Source: Thermoplasmata archaeon (lineage in GTDB: Archaea > Thermoplasmatota > Thermoplasmata > Lutacidiplasmatales > UBA184). From it: a DNA stretch of 64,000 nt. The position numbers and the translations under genes are program-made. Numbering within the stretch: the stretch's first letter is position 1; the number at the start of each line of letters is the position of its first letter. Where the stretch lies: positions 46,092-110,091 of the forward strand of contig DASPSQ010000001.1 of NCBI GenBank assembly GCA_035623855.1, given 5' to 3'. Positions 2,165 to 45,317 of this stretch are shown here, one piece after another. Below the pieces are notes generated by a model that was not told the DNA's origin, made no database searches, and saw nothing but the letters and a program-made list of their open reading frames with translations.

Positions 2165-4765
2165 ATGAGCCGGTTATACGTCGCCCGCGCTATGTCAAAT
2201 CACGGCAGGTTATTGCTGCTGGTCGTAGCCGCGGTCGTTGCGACGATGGTGTTGCCGGGCGCTTCCGCGCTCCGGATCGGTGGGACCTCCGGGCCGGTCC
2301 CGCACATGGCTCCCGCCGGTACGCACGTATCCTCCGAGAAGCCCTCCGCGACGCGATCCGTCGCAACTGGGACGATGACGACCCAAGAGCGCATCGTCTC
2401 TGACCTCAAATCGCAGCACGTCCCCTCGACTGCTGCGTTTCTGCCGAATTTTGGAGCGCGGGTCTCTACCGAGGGAGGCGTCGTGACACCGCTGTATGAC
2501 AACACGCCCGCGCCGATGGGTCTCGGCGACTTCGGAATCGAGGACGTCAATGGCCAGAATGTCGGCACGGTCACTTACGTCCGCAGTGTGATGGCGTCGG
2601 TCACCCTCAACAATGTCGAGCCGATCTACGTGACAAGCTCGGCCCCCGACGAGTTCACGATGCAGCTCAACACGGTCGGCACGAACGTCGATCTGTTCGG
2701 GAACGATAGTTACCAGTTCTGGCTCCAGAACGTTCCAATCTATGCTACGAGCACCCAGACTCTCTCGTTCGAGGACAACGTCTGGAACTTCTCGAGCCCG
2801 GCGTTCCTGTTCACTGCGAACTCGGTCTACGCCCACGGTCCCGGCGGGGTCGTCGCCGCGCCGACATTGTACTACGCCGTCGGCCCGTCCTTCCATATTC
2901 CAATGCCGTTCACAGTCGTGGTGTACAACAACCTCACCGTGGTCGGGGGGCGCTCAACGATTTTCTTCAACTACACCGTGATTCCGTCGACCGCGAGCCC
3001 ATTCTCGGGGTCCTATGACTTCGTGGAGTTCAACTCCACGCCGGCGATCACTGGGCCGGCACCCCAGCCCGTGAACCAGATTAACGGCCAGAAGGTCGGC
3101 GACACCAACTTCCTTCTGAACGACGCCGAGATCATGCTCGGCGGCCCGGGTGGTGGGTCGACAACGAGCCTCTTCCAGATCTCCGGTTCGATGGGGCTCT
3201 GGCTCCTTCCGAACGGGACGAGCACCTACCAGACGGTTCCCTCGGCGTACGATTTCGGGACGGACACCGGGGAAACGTCGGAAGGCATCGCAGAATGGGC
3301 CACAACGGGCTCGAGCCCAATGGCCGAGCTCGGGAGCGGTCCGTCGATGCTCTACGGACTCTGGGGCGTGGTCGGCGCCCAGCAGGGCGAGGAGACGATC
3401 ACGCTGAACCTGTCGCCGACGAACACGTTCGTCTTCGCGAGCCCGGGCGCCACGTTTAACGAGAGCGCGGCCGGCTGGGGGCCCACGGCGATCAGCGGGC
3501 CGACGGTCTATAACGTCGCGCCGGGGGCATACAGCTTTGAGTACCTGCTCGCGGACCACACCCCGCAGGCTGCCACGTACAGCTCGGGCGGGACCTGGAC
3601 GGTCGCGCTGACGCTGAACCCGTCGTTGGGAGACTACACGCCGCTCTGGGCCGAGGCAAATAGCCAGCTCGCGGCGATCTCGCAGGGCGGTATCGGGACG
3701 GCCAAGGATCCGTACATCCTCGACAATGGTCCGGCGAACGTGAACTCACTCTTTGGAGAGATCAACGACTACGCCTTTGTAGTGTTCCCGGGGATCTACC
3801 TGATCGACACGACCGCCTTCGTGACGGCAGCGGAGCTGCCGGCGTTCTCGATCGCGTACCTTCCGAGCCAGATCGCGGGCGCCCGCCTCATCCAGGACGG
3901 GCTGCCACTCAGCGACCAGCTGAACATCGAGCTGTACGAGACCTCCCACGTGTCGATCATCAATAGCGATCAGATCTCGGGATGGTTCGCGGCGTTTGGC
4001 TCGTTCGGGGAGCCCGCGTCGATCTACCTGTGGGGCGCGACGAACACCCTCATCGCAGGAAACGAGCTCGAGGTCGAGTCGAACGGGATCACCGCGGCCG
4101 GATTCACCGCGACGAACGGTGGGTATAACGTGATCTGGGGGAACATCTTCGCCCCCCAGCCGGTGGTCTCGCCGAGCACCGCCGAGCTCCTGAACTACGG
4201 CGCGTTCCCCGCGCTCTGGGAGTTCGAGTCGCACGACGTGATCTTTAACAACGCGTTCCTGACGCCGGTCACTGCGATCAGCTTCCCGGAAAACTTCTAC
4301 TCGGGAGCCTTCCAGCTGAACGTCGACCAATGGAACGTGAAGGTCCAGCCGTCGAGCGACGTTTACACAAAGAACGGATTCTACCTGTCGGGGAGCATCC
4401 TCGGGTTGAGCTGGGAAGGCGGCAACTACTGGAGCAACTACGGGACTCCGCAGGACCCGTTCGGCGTGCTGCCGTACAACGACGGTGGGTTGATCTTCTC
4501 CGGTGGCGACCATCACCCGCTGATCCCCTTCACGCTCTACGTGGTCCGGTTCACGGAGACCGGTCTCCCGAGCGGGACCGCCTGGTCGGTGACTCTGAAC
4601 GGCTACACTCAGACGACCACCCACGCGACCATGGTCTTCTATGAGCCGACGGGGGCCTACGCCTTCACGGTGGGCGCGGTTCCGGGATACACTGCAACTC
4701 CGTCCTCGGGCGCGGTCGACGTAGTGTCGAGCGCGGTTCTGGTGCACATTTCGTTCATGGCCTGA
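2165..4765 (+). CDS. thermopsin-family (peptidase A5) secreted glycoprotein with C-terminal beta-helix-like and Ig-like extensions
   Basis: N-terminal signal/TM segment LLLLVVAAVVATMVLPGASA. Blocks PAPMGLGDFG, YQFWLQNV...LSFEDNVWNFS and AEIMLGGPGGGSTTS...VPSAYDFGTDTGE match the thermopsin core (YWLQDV..FIDNVWN; AELVWGGGGNG..LYTFGADTAE). There are more than 20 N-x-S/T sequons. Confidence 0.75.
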   Translation: MSRLYVARAMSNHGRLLLLVVAAVVATMVLPGASALRIGGTSGPVPHMAPAGTHVSSEKPSATRSVATGTMTTQERIVSDLKSQHVPSTAAFLPNFGARVSTEGGVVTPLYDNTPAPMGLGDFGIEDVNGQNVGTVTYVRSVMASVTLNNVEPIYVTSSAPDEFTMQLNTVGTNVDLFGNDSYQFWLQNVPIYATSTQTLSFEDNVWNFSSPAFLFTANSVYAHGPGGVVAAPTLYYAVGPSFHIPMPFTVVVYNNLTVVGGRSTIFFNYTVIPSTASPFSGSYDFVEFNSTPAITGPAPQPVNQINGQKVGDTNFLLNDAEIMLGGPGGGSTTSLFQISGSMGLWLLPNGTSTYQTVPSAYDFGTDTGETSEGIAEWATTGSSPMAELGSGPSMLYGLWGVVGAQQGEETITLNLSPTNTFVFASPGATFNESAAGWGPTAISGPTVYNVAPGAYSFEYLLADHTPQAATYSSGGTWTVALTLNPSLGDYTPLWAEANSQLAAISQGGIGTAKDPYILDNGPANVNSLFGEINDYAFVVFPGIYLIDTTAFVTAAELPAFSIAYLPSQIAGARLIQDGLPLSDQLNIELYETSHVSIINSDQISGWFAAFGSFGEPASIYLWGATNTLIAGNELEVESNGITAAGFTATNGGYNVIWGNIFAPQPVVSPSTAELLNYGAFPALWEFESHDVIFNNAFLTPVTAISFPENFYSGAFQLNVDQWNVKVQPSSDVYTKNGFYLSGSILGLSWEGGNYWSNYGTPQDPFGVLPYNDGGLIFSGGDHHPLIPFTLYVVRFTETGLPSGTAWSVTLNGYTQTTTHATMVFYEPTGAYAFTVGAVPGYTATPSSGAVDVVSSAVLVHISFMA

Positions 4766-7049: not shown

Positions 7050-7334
7050 ATGCACTATCCAAAGGTCGTCTCGACGTACTGCCCGAAGTGCAAGAAGCAC
7101 ACCGAGCACGAGGTCGAGAAGGGCAAGAAGCGACCCGCGTCCGAGCTTGCTTGGGGGCAGCGGCGGTTCCGCCGCGCGACCCGCGGGTACGGAGGCTTCC
7201 CGCGGCCGAAACCCGAGGGACGCGCAAAGGCGGTGCGTCGCGTGTATCTCAAGTTCCGGTGCAAGAAGTGCCAGTACACGGTCCAGCCCGCAAGCTGGCG
7301 GGCGAGTCAGCTCGAACTCGTCGAGCAGCATTAG
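7050..7334 (+). CDS. rpl44e: 50S ribosomal protein L44e
   Basis: 94 aa with CPKCKKH..CKKCQ zinc-ribbon motifs, typical L44e. The stop codon is TAG. Confidence 0.9.
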   Translation: MHYPKVVSTYCPKCKKHTEHEVEKGKKRPASELAWGQRRFRRATRGYGGFPRPKPEGRAKAVRRVYLKFRCKKCQYTVQPASWRASQLELVEQH

Positions 7335-16317: not shown

Positions 16318-16634
16318 TGGGTGTAACTACTAAAACGGATTTGGGCCAAAGGCGGAAGTCTGCGAGTGCCGCGACTCAGACGTGCCCCGTTCTTGCGACG
16401 ATTGACGTGTGGAACTGAGCGTGCACCTGTCGCGAACGACAAAACTTAGACTCCGTAAGGGGAAACAATCTACCTAATGCGGTCTGCCTAGTCTTTCGGT
16501 TCATCGCAGAGTCGTTCGTCCGCGTGCAGTCTCGGACGGCGAAAGAATTCTGTCTATCCGAACGAACCGCGAGGTGGGCCAAATCTCCTGAATGACAAAG
16601 TCCTCATAGAGGAAAACCTACGGGATGCGCGGCA

Positions 16635-17471
16635 ATGTCCTGGAAGTACACCGACGAGTACTATCGGGAATACACCCGGACGACCTGGAATGAGAGTGCG
16701 GACGCCTACGTGGGGATGCTCGCATCTCTCGAACCGTTCCGCCAGGACATGCTAGTCCGTCTTGGCGCGCGTCGAGGCGAAGTGATCCTCGACCTGGGCA
16801 CCGGCCCAGGCGAGCCGGCAATGACCATCGCGAAGCAGGTCGACCCGGACGGCCACGTCACGGGCGTGGACCTCTCCGAGAACATGGTCTCGATTGCCAA
16901 CAGGGTTGCGGCGTCTCGGAGACTCAAAAATGTCGACTTTCAGGTCATGGATTGCTCTGACCTGAAGCTGCCCGATTCACACTTCGATGCCGCTGCCTGC
17001 TGCTTCGGGTTCCAGATCTTCACCGACCCGGAGAAAGCGGCCCGAGAGGCTTTTCGCGTCCTCAAGCCGAACGGTCGAATCTGTGTGGGAGTGTGGGCTA
17101 CTGGTGATCGGGTGCCATTCCTCCATGCGATCGTGGGTCCGATGCTAGAGTTTGCCGAGCCGGACGAGAACGGGTACATCCCAACTCCCTACGAAACCGG
17201 GGGTCCGGGAGAAATGGTCCAATTCCTGCAGAACGCAGGATTCCAGGATGGCACGGAGTTTCGTGTCGAGCATCGAATGAAATTCGAGACCACCGACGAC
17301 TACCTTCGCACGATTCTGAAGGCCACACCCATCGGTCACTCCCTCGAAGAAGAGGATGCCGCGACTCAAGAGCAGGTTCTACGGAAGACTCGGGCAAATC
17401 TGAAACGTTGGACGACCTCCGACGGAGTCTCTCTCCCGGCGGAGTGTGTCATCGTAACCGCTCGGAAGTAA
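16635..17471 (+). CDS. class I SAM-dependent methyltransferase
   Basis: Motif I ILDLGTGPGEPA, plus VLKPNGRICVGV. Confidence 0.65.
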   Translation: MSWKYTDEYYREYTRTTWNESADAYVGMLASLEPFRQDMLVRLGARRGEVILDLGTGPGEPAMTIAKQVDPDGHVTGVDLSENMVSIANRVAASRRLKNVDFQVMDCSDLKLPDSHFDAAACCFGFQIFTDPEKAAREAFRVLKPNGRICVGVWATGDRVPFLHAIVGPMLEFAEPDENGYIPTPYETGGPGEMVQFLQNAGFQDGTEFRVEHRMKFETTDDYLRTILKATPIGHSLEEEDAATQEQVLRKTRANLKRWTTSDGVSLPAECVIVTARK

Positions 17472-17546
17472 CGGCTCCCACCCTCGGAGTCATCATCCTG
17501 CCCTTCCGGTAGGCGGGTCAAGCCGTCGTTGGGTCCAATATCTCCT

Positions 17547-17936
17547 TCACCCAACGTCTCGAGGTTGGTTCCCTAAGCCGTCAACGTTGCCGCGCTGCTT
17601 GAGGGTGACCGCTGCCCGAATCAGGTTCTTGAGCGCGACCGGATCGATCGAAGTCCCTTCGGGTATGTCGATTGCGCGAAAGGTCCTGCTCTCGAGTCGG
17701 GTGTTGAAGAGCCGGTTAGGGTCTTCGAGAGAGGCTCCGTTGGGGAAGGTGAGCCGCAGGCGACCCTTCAGCTCGTTCGCGAGGCAAATGATCCCGTTCT
17801 AGGACCATACCGGAACCCCCGCGGGATTCGAGGGTTTCTTCCATTTCTGCTCCTCGATAGCCTCGGGATCGGCCTCGCGCATGATGCCACGGACATCGTC
17901 GAGAAGTTTCGCCAGACCATCACAGGATTGCGACAT
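17547..17936 (-). pseudogene. DUF1801 (YdhG-like) family gene interrupted by one in-frame TAG (complement of 17799-17801)
   Basis: The upstream part (ORF track 17799..18125) ends ..IMREADPEAIEEQKWKKPSNPAGVPVWS. After the TAG the same frame continues NGIICLANELKGRLRLTFPNGASLEDPN...AAVTLKQRG to a TGA at 17547-17549. Joined, the two parts give a full-length DUF1801 domain of about 128 aa. Confidence 0.6.
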
Positions 17937-18324
17937 CTTCGTGGCTGAGGCGGCGGAGGACCTGCGGGTTCGGGGTGTGGGGCCCATTTTGCTCGCCTCG
18001 CACAGAATCTGCAGGCATAAGCCTCGCCTGCACCCAACGGTCCCGCTTCGCCGAGAGGCGACACGGACCCTAGGTTCGCCGTGCTCTCCCTCGGTGGTTT
18101 CCGGTAGGTCCGTCACGCGTTGCACACCAGGGACTCTCGGCTCCTCTCAAGGAACCGGTGGAGTGCCCGCCGACTCTCCTTCCCGGAGTGCTTCACTACC
18201 TCACCTACATGTTTTCAGGCATCACTTCTGTGGCCTGAGTACACGCCCGTGACACTCAGGCATGTGAGAACAACTCTCGCGACTCCGACGAAGTTATCCC
18301 GATAGGTCGCTCGGTGCGAAGCCC

Positions 18325-19260
18325 ATGGACGCACTCCTCGCGAAAAGCCTCTCCAAGACGTATCACGCCCGACAGGGGACGGTGAAGGCCCTCGACAACG
18401 TCGACATGGTGATTCGCAAGGGGCAGCTGTTCGGGTTCCTCGGTCGAAACGGAGCCGGGAAGACGACCTTCATCAAAATCGCCGCGGGGCTGCTTCTACC
18501 GACTTCCGGTTCAATGGAACTGTTCGGAATCGACGTGCTCAGGCAGCCGCGCGAGGTCCGAGAACGAATCGCCATTGTTCCGCAGGAGGGGAAGCCGTTC
18601 TACCACCTTACGCCGCGCGAGCACATCGAGGAGTACCTGCGGGTACGAGGCCGGGCGGCCGAGGCTGCGAAGAGCATCGCGGACGATCTTCTCCAAGCGA
18701 TGGGATTGGAGGCGTACTCGCACATCCCGGCGATGCTCCTCTCGGGGGGCCTCCAGCAACGAACGCTCGTGGCCATGGTCCTGGCAACCGGTGCCGACTT
18801 TCTCTTCCTCGACGAACCCACGCTCGGGATGGACCCCTTCGCTCGTCGACAAGTTTGGGATGTGATCCGCCGCGCCGGGCGCAACGGTTCGACGGTGTTG
18901 ATTACAACCCACTACCTCGACGAGGCCGAGCAGCTCACCGAGGAACTCGCCGTCATCGAGGGGGGACACGTTCTCTACAAGGGGAGTGCGGAGTCGCTCA
19001 AGTCCAAGGTTCGGAGAGAAGTGCGACTGCACTTCGACCGCGGCTTCACTTCGAAGGAGCTGGAATCCTTCGGGGAGGTCTACTCAGAACGCGGCGGTCT
19101 GACTCTGATGACCACTCGAGTCCATGCGGAGGAATTGACACGGGCTGCCCTGGAGCGCGGCATAGCGGTCAATGTCGGTCCGGTCACGCTCGAAGAAGCG
19201 TTCCTCACCCTCGTGGGCAAGAGCATCGAGGAAGACGAGCCCGGGGGTGCTTGGGCATGA
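18325..19260 (+). CDS. ABC transporter ATP-binding protein (ABC-2 exporter type)
   Basis: Walker A GRNGAGKTT, signature LSGGLQQR, Walker B FLFLDEPT. Confidence 0.9.
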   Translation: MDALLAKSLSKTYHARQGTVKALDNVDMVIRKGQLFGFLGRNGAGKTTFIKIAAGLLLPTSGSMELFGIDVLRQPREVRERIAIVPQEGKPFYHLTPREHIEEYLRVRGRAAEAAKSIADDLLQAMGLEAYSHIPAMLLSGGLQQRTLVAMVLATGADFLFLDEPTLGMDPFARRQVWDVIRRAGRNGSTVLITTHYLDEAEQLTEELAVIEGGHVLYKGSAESLKSKVRREVRLHFDRGFTSKELESFGEVYSERGGLTLMTTRVHAEELTRAALERGIAVNVGPVTLEEAFLTLVGKSIEEDEPGGAWA

Positions 19261-20021
19261 CGTGGAGGTCCCAGTCGAACGCGGTCCTACGGATCTGTTG
19301 GTTCAACGGGTTTCTGGGGTTGATGCGCAGTCCGCTGGTCTTTGTTGCGCTCTTCCTCACGCCTCTCAGCTTCCTGTTCTTCATCTACGTCCTAGCCCCG
19401 CGTGCGGAGCTGCCTTTTGGAGTGGTAGGAGGGCTGCTGTTCTCGTGCTTATTCACGGGTAGCGGGATGATGAACGATTGCGCCTACTTGCGGCTCGAGC
19501 GGCAAATGCAGCAGGTCTTCATCACAAGCCCGCTGCGGCCGATATCCTGGGTCCTCGGGATGGCCCTTAGCGAGCTCGTCTTCACCATCCCGGCTCTCGT
19601 GCTCTTCAGTATCGTCCTCGTCCTCGTCGTACCCATCAGCCTCCTCTCGTTCCTTGCCTTGGTGGGGGTGATCTTCCTCACCTGGCTGCTCGCGACCAGC
19701 CTCGGCTTCCTCCTGTCGACGTTCTTCCGCACGCTGCGGGAGATCTGGCCCATCGGGATGGTGGTGTTCACCACTCTTTCCGTACTCCCCCCGGTGTTCT
19801 ATCCGCTCGGCTACATTCCTGGCTCATTCCGGTGGGTGGCGTACATCGCTCCCTCGACCTTCGCTAGCCAACTCGCCGCTCGTGCCGCAGGACTGCCGGC
19901 GGCCTCGGTGCCCGCGTCCCCGCTTCTGTCGTCGGCTACCGGCGAACTGGTTGGACTGGTTCTCCTGACCGCACTCTTCATTGGGGTTGCCATGCGCTTC
20001 GCTCGATGGCGCGACCCTTAG
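19257..20021 (+). CDS. ABC-2 family transporter permease
   Basis: The ATG overlaps the ATPase stop as ATGA. Six predicted TM helices. It is the internal start of ORF-track 18855..20021. Confidence 0.75.
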   Translation: MTWRSQSNAVLRICWFNGFLGLMRSPLVFVALFLTPLSFLFFIYVLAPRAELPFGVVGGLLFSCLFTGSGMMNDCAYLRLERQMQQVFITSPLRPISWVLGMALSELVFTIPALVLFSIVLVLVVPISLLSFLALVGVIFLTWLLATSLGFLLSTFFRTLREIWPIGMVVFTTLSVLPPVFYPLGYIPGSFRWVAYIAPSTFASQLAARAAGLPAASVPASPLLSSATGELVGLVLLTALFIGVAMRFARWRDP

Positions 20022-21187: not shown

Positions 21188-21982
21188 TTAGGCGAAAAGG
21201 TCCTCGAGCGGATTTTCCATCTCGCGTGCTTCGCGGATCTTGACGCCCTGGGCCATCAGTTCGTGGAGGATCGAAGGGACTTCCTCGGGCCCCGAAAGCT
21301 CCCTCAGGTAGTACTCGCCCTCGTGGTCGTAGCTCGCGAGGGCCGGCGACGGTTCGAGCACCCTTATCCCGAGCACGAAGCGCGAACCCCGGACGTTCTC
21401 GATCCGGTCGAATCGGGCAATCATGCCCGATTTGATCACGAGAACGTATCGCCCGATCTCGCGCGCCTCGAAGAGGTTGTGCGAGGAATACAAAACGACC
21501 TTCTCTCGGCTCAGTTTCAGGATGAGTTCCCGGATTTCGCGGGCCAGTTTGGGGTCGAGATTGGCGGTCGGCTCGTCGAGAAGGTAGATGGAACGTTCTC
21601 GGAGGAAAATGCGGGCGATTGAGACCCGTTTGCGTTGGCCCGCACTGAGCTGCGACGGGAACTTCGCGCTGAGGTCCCGAATCTCGAGCTGGTCGAGGAC
21701 GCGATCCACATCCTGGGGTCGAGCGCCCTCGGCCCGGGCGAAGAACTCGAGGGCCTCGCGGACCTGAAGACCGTCCGGCAATCCGTCCATGTGGGTGAGA
21801 TAGTGCAGACGGTCGCGGGACGACTGCCGGTCGATCGGCTCTCCGCCCACGTACACCTCGCCTTCGTAGGGGCGTAGGATTCCCGCTAGCGTTCGGAACA
21901 GCGTGGTCTTTCCCGCGCCGTTCGGCCCCAGTACCACGTAGATCGACGGCTCCGTGATCCGGAACGAGACCTGGTGAAGCAC
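21188..21982 (-). CDS. ABC transporter ATP-binding protein
   Basis: GPNGAGKTTLFRTLAG, LSAGQRKRVSIARIF, YLLDEPTANLD. Confidence 0.9.
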   Translation of the reverse strand: MLHQVSFRITEPSIYVVLGPNGAGKTTLFRTLAGILRPYEGEVYVGGEPIDRQSSRDRLHYLTHMDGLPDGLQVREALEFFARAEGARPQDVDRVLDQLEIRDLSAKFPSQLSAGQRKRVSIARIFLRERSIYLLDEPTANLDPKLAREIRELILKLSREKVVLYSSHNLFEAREIGRYVLVIKSGMIARFDRIENVRGSRFVLGIRVLEPSPALASYDHEGEYYLRELSGPEEVPSILHELMAQGVKIREAREMENPLEDLFA

Positions 21983-23501: not shown

Positions 23502-24278
23502 CTATTCCCAACGGAAGAAGCGTACAGCGATGAATGCGAAAATGACGGTGTACACCACCATGGTCACGAGGGTGGTGTACGGCGGTACGGCGTTGAACAC
23601 CGAATACAGGATCGCCCGAACGGCCGCTCCCGTGGGGGAGTAGTACATGATGGTCGCTAACGCACCTCCGACCTGAACCGGCTGGACCCATAGCCCCGAC
23701 AGGAACATCAGAGGAAAGACAAACCCGCCCGCGATGTATTCGGCGGCTTGCTGCGACGGAGCGATCGCCGCCACCACCATACCGAGCGAGAACATCTCCA
23801 CAATCGCCAGGAACGCAATCCCCACAAACTCGACTCCCACGGTCAGCGGAGCCCCGAAAATCGCGATGGTGACGATCAGCAGGAAGGCGGTGGCGACCGC
23901 CGCGATGATCAGGTTCAGCAGCAGCTGAGCGGCGAGCAACATCGATGGTGGGATTGGCGTGGTGGATACTCGGCGAAGCCAGCCGATTTCTCGGTCCCTC
24001 GCAAACGTGGCCGGTAGGCCGAGTAGGCCGATCGCGATGTACGAGATGACCAGGATAGTCGGGGTCCAGAGTTCGAGGATCGTCAGCCCGGAGCCGGCGA
24101 CCTCCCCGGGATTCAGGCGCCCGATGGCCCAAAACACCACGAGCAGGGCGGTGGGCAGGACGAGGCCGGTAAAGATGTACCGTTGCCGCAAGGCGAGGCG
24201 CCACTGCACTTTGAGAAGTTCGGAAAACGCACCTCGCGTACGTTCCCGCGTGCGGCTGGGACTCGGGTCGGAGGTCAC
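23502..24278 (-). CDS. ABC-2 type transporter permease
   Basis: 258 aa with six TM helices. It overlaps the upstream ATPase gene by 4 nt. Confidence 0.7.
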   Translation of the reverse strand: MTSDPSPSRTRERTRGAFSELLKVQWRLALRQRYIFTGLVLPTALLVVFWAIGRLNPGEVAGSGLTILELWTPTILVISYIAIGLLGLPATFARDREIGWLRRVSTTPIPPSMLLAAQLLLNLIIAAVATAFLLIVTIAIFGAPLTVGVEFVGIAFLAIVEMFSLGMVVAAIAPSQQAAEYIAGGFVFPLMFLSGLWVQPVQVGGALATIMYYSPTGAAVRAILYSVFNAVPPYTTLVTMVVYTVIFAFIAVRFFRWE

Positions 24279-25246
24279 GCGGAGTCACGCTCCTCCGGAC
24301 CGGCGTTTCGGGTCAGCTTCACAAAGGCGTCGTCGAGGTTTCCCTTCCGGGCCTCGAGTTCGGAGACGCTCACGCCAGCCTTCCTCAAAGCGTCGAGGAC
24401 GGAGGTCGCGAGGTCGCCCGTGCCCGTGACGGTGATATACCGGTCTTTGCGCTCGATCGTTTCGACGCCCGGAATCGCCCGGAGGGTCGAGTCGTCGACG
24501 GGCACGGACGGAACGAATCGCACTCGGACCCCTCCCACGCGCGCGGTGATCGCCTCCGGAGTGTCCAAGACCCGTACGACGCCATGATCGATGAGGGCGA
24601 GCCGGTCGCACAAACGTTCGGCCTCGTCCATGAAGTGGGTGACGAGAATCACCGTGACACCACGCTCCCGGATGTGTTCGATAAGGTCCCATGTCTCTCG
24701 TCGAGCCTCCGGGTCGAGTCCGGTGGTCAGTTCGTCGAGGATGGCAATCCTCGGGTTGCCCACGAGGGCGAGCGCGATGGAGAGTCGTTGTTTCTGACCC
24801 CCCGACAACTTTTGGAATTGCTTCTGCTTCAGCTCCCCGATGCCCAGCGACTCGAGCAGTCGATCCGGCGTCAGCGGGTCCCGGTAGAACGAGGCGAACA
24901 GTTCGACGGCCTCGCCCACCGTGATGATCGGCGGCAGAGCGCCTTCCTGCAGCTGGACCCCCACGAATTCCCGCATCTTCTTACGGTCCGTCCGGGGAGA
25001 AAGCCCATCGACGAAGATCTGACCGGAATCCGGGACTCGGAGCCCCGAGATGCACTCCACCGTAGTCGTCTTGCCGGCACCGTTGGGTCCGACGATCCCG
25101 AAAATCTCGCCCTTCCGGATCGAGAACGAGACGTCGTTGACCGCCACGAGGTCGCCGTATCGCTTGACCAAGTGTTGTACCGCGACAATCGGTCCGGGCT
25201 CGGTCGGCGCTACCGACGCTTCCCCCGGGGCCTTGTCTGCGCTCAT
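24275..25246 (-). CDS. ABC transporter ATP-binding protein
   Basis: GPNGAGKTTTVECISG, LSGGQKQRLSIALAL, ILDELTTGLD. The start is taken at the internal ATG (MSADKAP..) of ORF-track 24275..25426. Confidence 0.85.
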   Translation of the reverse strand: MSADKAPGEASVAPTEPGPIVAVQHLVKRYGDLVAVNDVSFSIRKGEIFGIVGPNGAGKTTTVECISGLRVPDSGQIFVDGLSPRTDRKKMREFVGVQLQEGALPPIITVGEAVELFASFYRDPLTPDRLLESLGIGELKQKQFQKLSGGQKQRLSIALALVGNPRIAILDELTTGLDPEARRETWDLIEHIRERGVTVILVTHFMDEAERLCDRLALIDHGVVRVLDTPEAITARVGGVRVRFVPSVPVDDSTLRAIPGVETIERKDRYITVTGTGDLATSVLDALRKAGVSVSELEARKGNLDDAFVKLTRNAGPEERDSA

Positions 25247-25599
25247 AGGCTCGCCGCGGCTGCGGCCGAGGGGCGGGTGTCTACTTGAGTTGATGCCACC
25301 CGCGGTCGAATATATGGGCGAGAGAACTTCGTACGTTCCGGATTGCGAATCGACGCACGAACTCGCCGGCCCCTGAACGACCGCCGACGGGGACATGGAT
25401 CGTTGCGGAGACCTCCTTTCCAACACTTTTCGACCATCCGTAGGCAGCTTGAGTCAAGCGACCTCGAAGCTGCTCGAGAGCTCCGTTGTTCCGGGGAAGG
25501 CCCGGCCGCCGCAAACTTCGATTTCGCTGCGCTCTCGTTCCCCGAAAGACTAACTAGACCTGCTTCCATTTGCGGAAAGGCGCAGGGGAGCGGAAGACG

Positions 25600-43343: not shown

Positions 43344-45317
43344 CTACTGCGGCGCCTGAACGGGTCGGCCGTACGTAGAGAGCAGCTGGACGAATCTTGG
43401 GTCCTTCCTCGCGCCGGCGAGGAGCGGAGACATGCGGATGCGAGCGGCCTGCATGGTATGCGCCTTGGCGGTCACGAACATCACTTCGAAAAACCGGTCG
43501 AGGTCACCGAGAGCGTAGTAGATGAATCCCACCGACGACTGACGCGCGTATCCCTCCTTCGAGGTCTCCTTGAGCTTCTGGATCGCCTTCATCGCCGTCG
43601 CTCGATCTCCTCGCAACGCCGCGAGGAAACCCCGGCAGAGGAGGGCGAAGTCGCTCGATGGAGCGATGCGCTCCAATTCACTCACCATGCTTTCCGCCTG
43701 CTCGAAGTCGCCCTTGAGCATGTAATAATCGGCGAGCCCTCGGTACGAGTCGATGGGGGACCGCTCCGTGGTCTTCTTCCAATGGGCCAGAGCGTCATCG
43801 AACCGGCCCGAGAAGAAGTAGGCGTTCCCCAGCGATCGGATCGTGGTGGGGAAGAGAGGGTCCAGCCGGAACGCTTGCTCGGTTTGATCGAGGTACGCCT
43901 CCACGATGCCGAGGGATCCCGCGAGCGCTCCCAAGATCATGTGAGCCTGGGCTGAGTTCGGGTTCAACTCCAACGCTCTCCGTACCTCGCGGTCCAAGAT
44001 GTCGGCGTTCTCGTCGGCCATGAACGCGATCTCGGCTCGCAAGCCGTGCGCCTCGGCGAGGTTCGGGTCGATGGCCATCGCCTTTTCCGCCGCCGCTCGA
44101 CCGAGTTCGCAGGCATCCACCCAGGGCATGAAGTCTTCCGTCCCCAGCCCGATGTACGCTTGCGACATGCCCGCGTACGCTCGCGCGAACGTGGGGTCGG
44201 TCTTGATCGCCTTCTGGAAGAACTCCAGGGAACGCCGCAACGAGTCTTGGTCGGTCTTCCACATCAACGATTGTCCCTGAAGATACAGGAGGTACGCCTC
44301 CGTTTCCGTGGGCTTTTCGAGCTCGGGGACCGCGACCCTCTCCTTCTGTAGTCCCCCGGGAAGAGCCGTCGCCACCTTGGTCGCGATGTCGCTCTGCACC
44401 GCGAAGATGTCGTCGAGGTCATCGTCGTACTTCGCGGTCCAAAGGTGCTCCTCGGTCGCCACGTCGATGACCTGGACCGTCACGCGGATTCGGTTCGCCG
44501 ACCGGCGGACACTCCCTTCGACCACGGTCCCCACGCCGAGCTCCTTTCCGATCGTGGCGACCGTTTTCTCGGTCTTCTTGTAGCCGATGACCGAAGTTCG
44601 GGCGATCACCTTGAGGCCCGGCACGAGCGAGAGGTTCGCGATCAGTTCTTCCGTGAGCCCATCGGCGAAATACTCGTCGGAAGGGTCGGGGCTGATGTTC
44701 GCGAAGGGAAGGACCGCGAGACGGGTCTTGTCCGCTACGCGTGCATCATCGGCCGCCGGCCCGCCGCCATTGTTCATCCAGGGGAACACCACCCGATAGA
44801 CCTCCATCGGGATTTGAATTCCCTTCATCGCTTTCGGCGGAAGCTTCTCGAACTTGTCGGGAATCTTTGTCCGGACCTGGTCGTAGACGGCACTGGAAAC
44901 GCATACCCCACCGGGTTCGGCGAGCGGCTCGATGCGGGCGGCGATGTTCACCGCGTCCCCGAGGATGTCGGCCCCGTTCTGGACCACGTCCCCGAGATGG
45001 ACCCCGATTCGGATGCGAATCGGCGTCTGACCGCCCTCGGAATTCCGCTCGTAGATGCGGCGCTGGATGTTCATGGCACACTGGACGGCCTTGAGCGCGC
45101 TGTCGAACTCGACCAGGAAGCCGTCGCCCGTGGACTTGATTTCGCGACCCTGGTGAAGGGCGAGGAGCGGGCGGAGTAATTCGGCCTGCTGACGGAGCAG
45201 CTCGAGGGTGCGCCCCTCATTGGCCTGCGTGGACGCCGTGAAGCCAACCGTATCCGTGAACATCACCGCGGCGAGGCGGCGACCCGGAGCCACGGAGCTG
45301 GGATGCATTCGGTCCAT
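43344..45317 (-). CDS. class III adenylyl cyclase with TolB-N-like region and C-terminal TPR repeats
   Basis: CHD motifs AVMFTDTVGFT (metal Asp), IKSTGDGFLVEF (Lys plus second Asp), RIGVHLGDVV, GDAVNIAARIE (Asn/Arg transition-state pair). TPR-like helical repeats follow. Confidence 0.8.
   Translation of the reverse strand: MDRMHPSSVAPGRRLAAVMFTDTVGFTASTQANEGRTLELLRQQAELLRPLLALHQGREIKSTGDGFLVEFDSALKAVQCAMNIQRRIYERNSEGGQTPIRIRIGVHLGDVVQNGADILGDAVNIAARIEPLAEPGGVCVSSAVYDQVRTKIPDKFEKLPPKAMKGIQIPMEVYRVVFPWMNNGGGPAADDARVADKTRLAVLPFANISPDPSDEYFADGLTEELIANLSLVPGLKVIARTSVIGYKKTEKTVATIGKELGVGTVVEGSVRRSANRIRVTVQVIDVATEEHLWTAKYDDDLDDIFAVQSDIATKVATALPGGLQKERVAVPELEKPTETEAYLLYLQGQSLMWKTDQDSLRRSLEFFQKAIKTDPTFARAYAGMSQAYIGLGTEDFMPWVDACELGRAAAEKAMAIDPNLAEAHGLRAEIAFMADENADILDREVRRALELNPNSAQAHMILGALAGSLGIVEAYLDQTEQAFRLDPLFPTTIRSLGNAYFFSGRFDDALAHWKKTTERSPIDSYRGLADYYMLKGDFEQAESMVSELERIAPSSDFALLCRGFLAALRGDRATAMKAIQKLKETSKEGYARQSSVGFIYYALGDLDRFFEVMFVTAKAHTMQAARIRMSPLLAGARKDPRFVQLLSTYGRPVQAPQ

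Follow-up and report, generated by a model that had tools for sequence, protein, structure and literature searches.

A DUF1801 (YdhG-like) gene of an uncultured Thermoplasmata archaeon as a probable pseudogene of recent origin

We find that a DUF1801 (YdhG-like) gene of an uncultured soil/peat Thermoplasmata archaeon carries two independent disabling lesions, an amber codon in place of a near-invariant histidine codon and a single-base deletion near the 3' end, and that in a natural population both have reached fixation or at least prevail. We judge it highly probable, at somewhat under nine chances in ten, that the locus is a real, recently formed pseudogene of an accessory gene. The analysis covers the whole stretch of DNA in which the gene lies, 64 kb in length and called the window hereafter. 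What the locus displays is most probably gene decay of an ordinary kind, and not stop-codon recoding.

The broken reading frame and its lesions

The DUF1801 gene runs on the minus strand from an ATG (17987-17985) to a TGA ending at 17547 and is broken by a single in-frame TAG (17801-17799). Ahead of the TAG lies a 62-codon frame, MGPTPRTRR...GVPVWS, and beyond it the same frame continues with NGIICLANELKGRLRLTF... for 83 codons, as far as the TGA (17549-17547). An earlier reading, made from the sequence only, had proposed that a single in-frame amber codon divides a DUF1801 gene, with both halves in the same frame of the minus strand, and our translations and profile searches bear this out. 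The joined halves match PF08818 (DUF1801) with 52.5 bits (E 6.8e-14, profile positions 4-85 of 85), which passes the gathering score of 27.2 bits, whereas the N-terminal half taken singly reaches 15.9 bits and the C-terminal half 30.6 bits. The downstream half thus does align to DUF1801, without which the proposal would have failed, and both halves are colinear with full-length orthologs at 77-89% identity. Judged by these comparisons, the match of the two halves is far beyond chance.

A search of 5.8 billion protein clusters returned thousands of relatives, the best of them full-length DUF1801 proteins of 132-139 aa that are 77-89% identical to the window gene. In the ortholog alignment, the column of the TAG holds a near-invariant His within the motif KWKKPSNPAGVPVWS-H-[ND]GIIC. 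We examined the codon aligned with the TAG in 110 retrieved loci, in 91 of which the motif could be read. CAC accounts for 67 of these and CAT for 13 (80/91 together, which settles the question, raised in the earlier reading, of the residue that aligns with the TAG), the rest being a few Asp, Arg, Cys, Lys or Ser codons; TAG, CAG or TAY was found at this position in none of the 91. His is present throughout the closest clade (10/10 members). The nearest intact copy, protein P0001 (loci L001, L002 and L033), has 87-89% amino acid identity to the window gene and reads TCC CAC AAC where the window reads TCC TAG AAC, so that the codon differs by substitutions at both its first and its third position. 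This intact copy is a positional ortholog of the window DUF1801 gene, as it adjoins, divergently, an ABC ATPase gene whose product is 95-98% identical to that of the window gene at 18325-19260. Relative to this ortholog, which has the same ABC ATPase neighbour, the window copy is disabled by TAG for CAC and by a frameshift.

The frameshift had escaped the earlier reading, in which the gene was said to be free of frameshifts and of any further damage. When its DNA is aligned with that of the closest intact ortholog, a 1-nt deletion appears between 17599 and 17598, near the 3' end, where the window reads CTCAA-GCAG and the ortholog CTCAACGCGG (over a longer stretch, CTCAA-GCAGCG and CTCAACGCGGCG, respectively). 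The deletion takes the third base of an Asn codon, AAC, and shifts the frame over the last 7 codons. The Asn at this site (N127) is nearly invariant among relatives, being conserved in at least 90% of them. As it stands, the window C-terminus reads ...TLKQRGNVDGLGNQPRDVG before its stop instead of the ...TLNAARQR of the ortholog, and the insertion of one base yields exactly the ortholog C-terminus, ...TLNAARQR, together with the stop TGA at 17583-17581. Between the TAG at 17801-17799 and the deletion at 17599/17598, the window copy is left with no uninterrupted reading frame for the whole domain. The frameshift alone, affecting only the last 7 residues, might be tolerable.

Changes specific to the window lineage were polarised with nine further relatives. 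They comprise 2 synonymous and 3 missense changes, too few for a test of relaxed selection. Gly22 -> Cys (17924-17922) and Val103 -> Phe (17681-17679) both affect sites that are invariant in 9/9 relatives.

Table 1. Features of the broken DUF1801 gene and its immediate neighbours, in window coordinates
Feature	Position	Strand	Remarks
N-terminal part of the broken DUF1801 gene	17802..17987	-	ATG and 61 more codons; start MGPTPRTRR common to intact orthologs P0001 and P0002
In-frame TAG at near-invariant His codon	17799..17801	-	CAC in nearest orthologs
Downstream part, remaining DUF1801 domain	17547..17798	-	83 codons and TGA 17549-17547
Site of 1-nt deletion	17598..17599	-	ancestral AAC (Asn) without its third base
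Ancestral stop TGA, now out of frame	17581..17583	-	DNA alignment with ortholog and one-base repair
TTT (Phe103)	17679..17681	-	GTT or GTN (Val) in 9/9 polarising relatives
TGT (Cys22)	17922..17924	-	Gly in 9/9 relatives
SAM-dependent methyltransferase, convergent neighbour	16635..17471	+	278 aa, intact; HXY46333.1; Pfam methyltransferase families
ABC-2 transporter operon, divergent neighbour	18325..20021	+	ATPase 18325-19260, permease 19257-20021, both intact

Reality of the lesions and decoding of the TAG

The window sequence comes from a metagenome-assembled genome, and a sequencing or assembly error had been put forward as one possible cause of the TAG; the true genome would then have a sense codon at this position and no deletion. 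Against this, an identical 62-aa N-terminal product is annotated on 11 public contigs from at least four samples (those shown are JGI 3300017975, 3300018090 and 3300018088, and ENA ERZ27251267), the outcome of two assembly efforts, one of JGI and the other ENA k141. An exact-protein look-up led us to these contigs, and we aligned four of the 11 to the window. Across the gene their DNA is base-for-base identical to it, with the TAG and the deletion included, yet they differ at one downstream SNP, and they are therefore separate assemblies of one population and not copies of one record. In addition, two substitutions together with an indel outside a homopolymer form an atypical error pattern. 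We rejected an error on the strength of the 11 contigs and of the two lesions shared by the four that were aligned, and an assembly artefact is very unlikely as the source of the lesions. Among the 5.8 billion protein clusters there was no intact allele more than 89% identical. A scan of JGI metagenomes by peptide patterns recovered intact relatives with up to 87% identity and no contigs identical to the window, and the nearest matches in the GTDB representative genomes are only about 53% identical.

Even with the lesions real, the TAG could still be decoded some of the time, by pyrrolysine, a suppressor tRNA or a near-cognate tRNA, and full-length DUF1801 protein would then still be made. The two halves stand in one frame, with 83 downstream codons free of further stops, the dN/dS ratio of the gene is still low (0.12), and the two changes from CAC to TAG look odd as a single accident. 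Thermoplasmata also contain the Methanomassiliicoccales, which use pyrrolysine. The stop codons of the window argue otherwise. In a crude GC3-based gene call (n=57), TGA ends 23 genes, TAG 20 and TAA 14, so that about one third of the calls, including genes that encode full-length domains, end in TAG. Among these is rpl44e, which closes with ...VEQH-TAG at 7332-7334, just as the sequence-only reading had it, and its verdict that genome-wide amber recoding is unlikely is upheld by the 20 TAG-ended calls of 57. Several TAG-ending ORFs have Pfam domains that run from end to end: ArsR (1-157/159), Cob_adeno_trans (1-170/171), ABC2_membrane (3-211/211), Abhydrolase_1 (2-244/245) and DAO (1-353/353). 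A scan of the 64-kb window for stops flanked by coding-like sequence gave no other plausible recoding stop and no second in-frame TAG; its candidates were an SDR gene with a non-coding-looking extension past its TAG and two adjacent genes that share a frame by chance.

The locus itself speaks against decoding as well. A TAG at this position occurs in 0/91 readable orthologous or related loci, the residue lost is a near-invariant His, which to our knowledge is encoded by no known amber reassignment, and a readthrough product would keep the frameshifted tail without the conserved Asn. No tRNA gene and no Rfam family was matched in the 64-kb window, and a Pfam scan of some 40 window ORFs brought up neither pyl nor methanogenesis genes. 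The earlier reading had suggested looking for a downstream structure that might promote readthrough, but the 131-nt segment that surrounds and follows the TAG has a fold no better than that of shuffled sequences (z = -1.3; 21/200 shuffles fold as well). A small hairpin (8-bp stem, 5-nt loop) does occur within window positions 17680-17810 of the minus strand, and its loop takes in the last two bases, AG, of the TAG. Since its paired bases specify the conserved VWS.NGII motif, and given an overall fold without significance, the hairpin probably just reflects the coding sequence. Compared with the pyrrolysine decoding of Methanomassiliicoccales and Methanosarcinales, the likeness is limited to an in-frame TAG in a Thermoplasmata-labelled archaeon; here TAG is a frequent terminator, the orthologs share no conserved in-frame TAG, the window holds neither pyl genes nor a tRNA, and the residue replaced is His. 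Stop-codon readthrough, another cause that the earlier reading had allowed for, is thus unsupported, given normal stop usage, the lack of other in-frame stops in the window and the insignificant fold. We rejected amber recoding or pyrrolysine use on stop usage, on the absence of other in-frame stops and on the lack of tRNA or Rfam matches in the window, and we give decoding of the TAG a slim chance overall. Its narrower form, in which partial suppression by a pyrrolysine or near-cognate tRNA would supply a full-length DUF1801 protein with a non-His residue and an altered tail, kept by selection, strikes us as scarcely credible, although, if true, it would account for both the open downstream frame and the low dN/dS. 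As it stands, the locus furnishes evidence neither for a new genetic code nor for a mechanism of recoding.

Selection, protein fold and the fate of the two halves

Between the window gene and L033, the nearest intact ortholog, pairwise dN/dS is 0.12 at a dS of 0.36, a value inside the range of 0.06-0.17 that holds for most intact pairs. By this pairwise test, which has low power, the window gene shows no statistically supported relaxation of selection. A ratio of 0.12 means that most of the divergence took place under purifying selection, so that inactivation would be recent; the value agrees with recent inactivation without proving it. The earlier reading had also offered a very recent nonsense mutation as an explanation. 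Its recency fits the dN/dS of 0.12, but a single recent point mutation was rejected, as CAC -> TAG requires two changes and the deletion is present too. As for the open frame beyond the TAG, open frames of 83 codons are common at 64% GC. Separately, two closely related intact orthologs, L037 and L039, differ from each other with an unusually high dN/dS of 0.53 at dS 0.10 (13 nonsynonymous and 8 synonymous differences). In L039, Pro replaces the conserved Ser that immediately precedes the His, and a further Pro stands in the conserved LTF motif; this pair may include another copy under relaxed constraint.

The protein fold was approached through an AlphaFold model of the intact ortholog P0001, which is 89% identical to the window gene and is not the window sequence itself (mean pLDDT 77.3). 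The model consists of a helix (20-36), five strands (41-45, 55-59, 63-70, 73-78 and 101-106) and a second helix (113-131). Its best PDB match is Bacillus subtilis YdhG (2OC6; probability 1.00, TM 0.60/0.64), followed by a Listeria YdhG-like 'frataxin' (9T2W) and a B. halodurans protein (2KL4), with superpositions of the three in the TM range of 0.57-0.64. A YdhG-like alpha/beta fold is thereby recognised for the P0001 model rather than for the window sequence; searches of the PDB by sequence and of NCBIfam gave no matches. The B. subtilis protein YdhG (Fra) is described as a frataxin-like iron donor for Fe-S assembly, and the SCOP YdhG-like group of proteins has been discussed as frataxin-like (PMC10855754). 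The joined window sequence passes the PF08818 gathering score (52.5 against 27.2 bits) and would on that count belong to this family, but identity to the solved YdhG proteins (2OC6, 9T2W and 2KL4) is only 13-15%, with about 15% to YdhG itself, and the subfamily has a conserved motif of its own, KWKKPSNPxGVPVWSHDGI. By analogy with the B. subtilis protein, an iron-chaperone role of the subfamily is putative, and the window copy, interrupted and frameshifted, would be a relic and not a working member.

In the P0001 model, the turn that links strand 55-59 to strand 63-70 contains the His, and truncation there would therefore remove four strands and the C-terminal helix. From this model we infer that a stop at the TAG leaves one helix and two strands, and no viable domain. 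The allele is nevertheless the only one seen for its lineage and recurs across samples, and NCBI annotates the C-terminal half as a protein, HXY46334.1, which could be taken to mean that a function has been kept or gained, either by the N-terminal fragment of 62 aa or by the halves as separate products. The annotated protein, however, comprises 81 aa of the downstream half (window 17547-17792) and begins at a non-canonical ATC; no ATG, GTG or TTG occurs in frame within the downstream half (17547..17798), and for want of a canonical start codon there we rejected a split gene with two products. The N-terminal fragment, for its part, would represent one helix and two strands of a fold of about six strands and two helices, and the homologs contain no family of similar short proteins, their 100-aa entries being N-terminally shortened calls that still span the His. 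Function in either fragment is accordingly a quite improbable reading of the locus.

Under the pseudogene interpretation that we prefer, at least three mutational events would have struck a gene of 135 codons, namely two substitutions at His63, by which CAC became TAG, and one single-base deletion, and the missense changes Gly22 -> Cys and Val103 -> Phe would also have accumulated in the window lineage. The codon could have changed in two steps, via a missense intermediate (Tyr or Gln), or under the relaxed constraint that followed the frameshift. Translation would end at the TAG and produce a 62-residue fragment with helix 1 and the first two strands only; the downstream part would not be made, since with no canonical start codon it should remain untranslated. 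The loss of function would be tolerated if, as relatives suggest, the gene is dispensable in the clade. In most respects this resembles ordinary prokaryotic pseudogenes, which likewise show a premature stop at a conserved codon, an extra indel, missense changes at invariant sites and a gene whose presence or absence varies among close relatives. Only the two-step change of CAC to TAG within one codon differs, and it is mildly unusual.

The DUF1801 locus among relatives and its meaning

The gene annotated next to HXY46334.1 on the ABC operon side is HXY46335.1, the ABC ATPase, and the relatives retrieved around this ATPase differ in the state of their DUF1801 gene. In L033, where the ATPase is 95% identical to that of the window, DUF1801 is intact beside the ABC operon. 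It is also intact in L040 (ATPase 90% identical), there inverted relative to both flanks. The window population, with an ATPase identity of 100%, has the broken copy. DUF1801 is absent from L118 and L119 (ATPase 97%), in which homology ends near 18107 and gives way to an NmrA/epimerase gene, and from L115-L117 (ATPase 91%); the DNA retrieved around the ABC ATPase in these five loci, L115-L119, contains no DUF1801 gene. Because siblings with ATPases 97% and 91% identical lack the gene, we infer that it is dispensable in the clade. A tblastn search for a second DUF1801 copy, as a source of possible redundancy, found none in the window.

The segment from about 16600 to 18107, which holds DUF1801 and the methyltransferase beside the ABC-2 operon, is variable among siblings. 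Their homology to the window ends about 120 nt upstream of the DUF1801 start, and the genes that replace the segment are the NmrA/epimerase gene or a 123-aa ORF without a Pfam match. In L040:1-2143, the intact DUF1801 gene has the opposite orientation to that in the window with respect to both of its flanks, the methyltransferase and the ABC ATPase, an arrangement that indicates a small local inversion.

The window as a whole has archaeal content, with genes for thermopsin, the ribosomal proteins L1, L10, L12, L44e and S27e, eIF2-alpha and aTrm56, and it also encodes heterotroph-type dehydrogenases. The thermopsin-domain protein, 866 aa in length, is encoded at 2165-4765 on the plus strand (PF05317, 180 bits). 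Thermopsins are a family of proteases characteristic of acidophilic archaea, Thermoplasmata among them, and the gene fits the Thermoplasmata label of the assembly. Three ABC ATPase genes (18325-19260, 21188-21982 and 24275-25426) and the ABC-2 permease genes 19257-20021 and 23502-24278 all lie within 7 kb, and these genes, between 18325 and 25426, may constitute putative paralogous export systems. A further gene, 43344-45317 on the minus strand, is TAG-terminated; in its product of 657 aa, an adenylate/guanylate cyclase catalytic domain occupies the N-terminal part and TPR repeats come after it.

The main value of these findings lies in annotation, where the locus is best recorded as a single pseudogene, broken by an internal stop and by a frameshift, instead of a stand-alone 81-aa 'DUF1801 domain-containing protein', HXY46334.1. 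Across lineages, the DUF1801 gene is intact in one sibling, broken here and absent in others, and the window population provides a clean, small example of an accessory gene in early decay in a natural population of Thermoplasmata.
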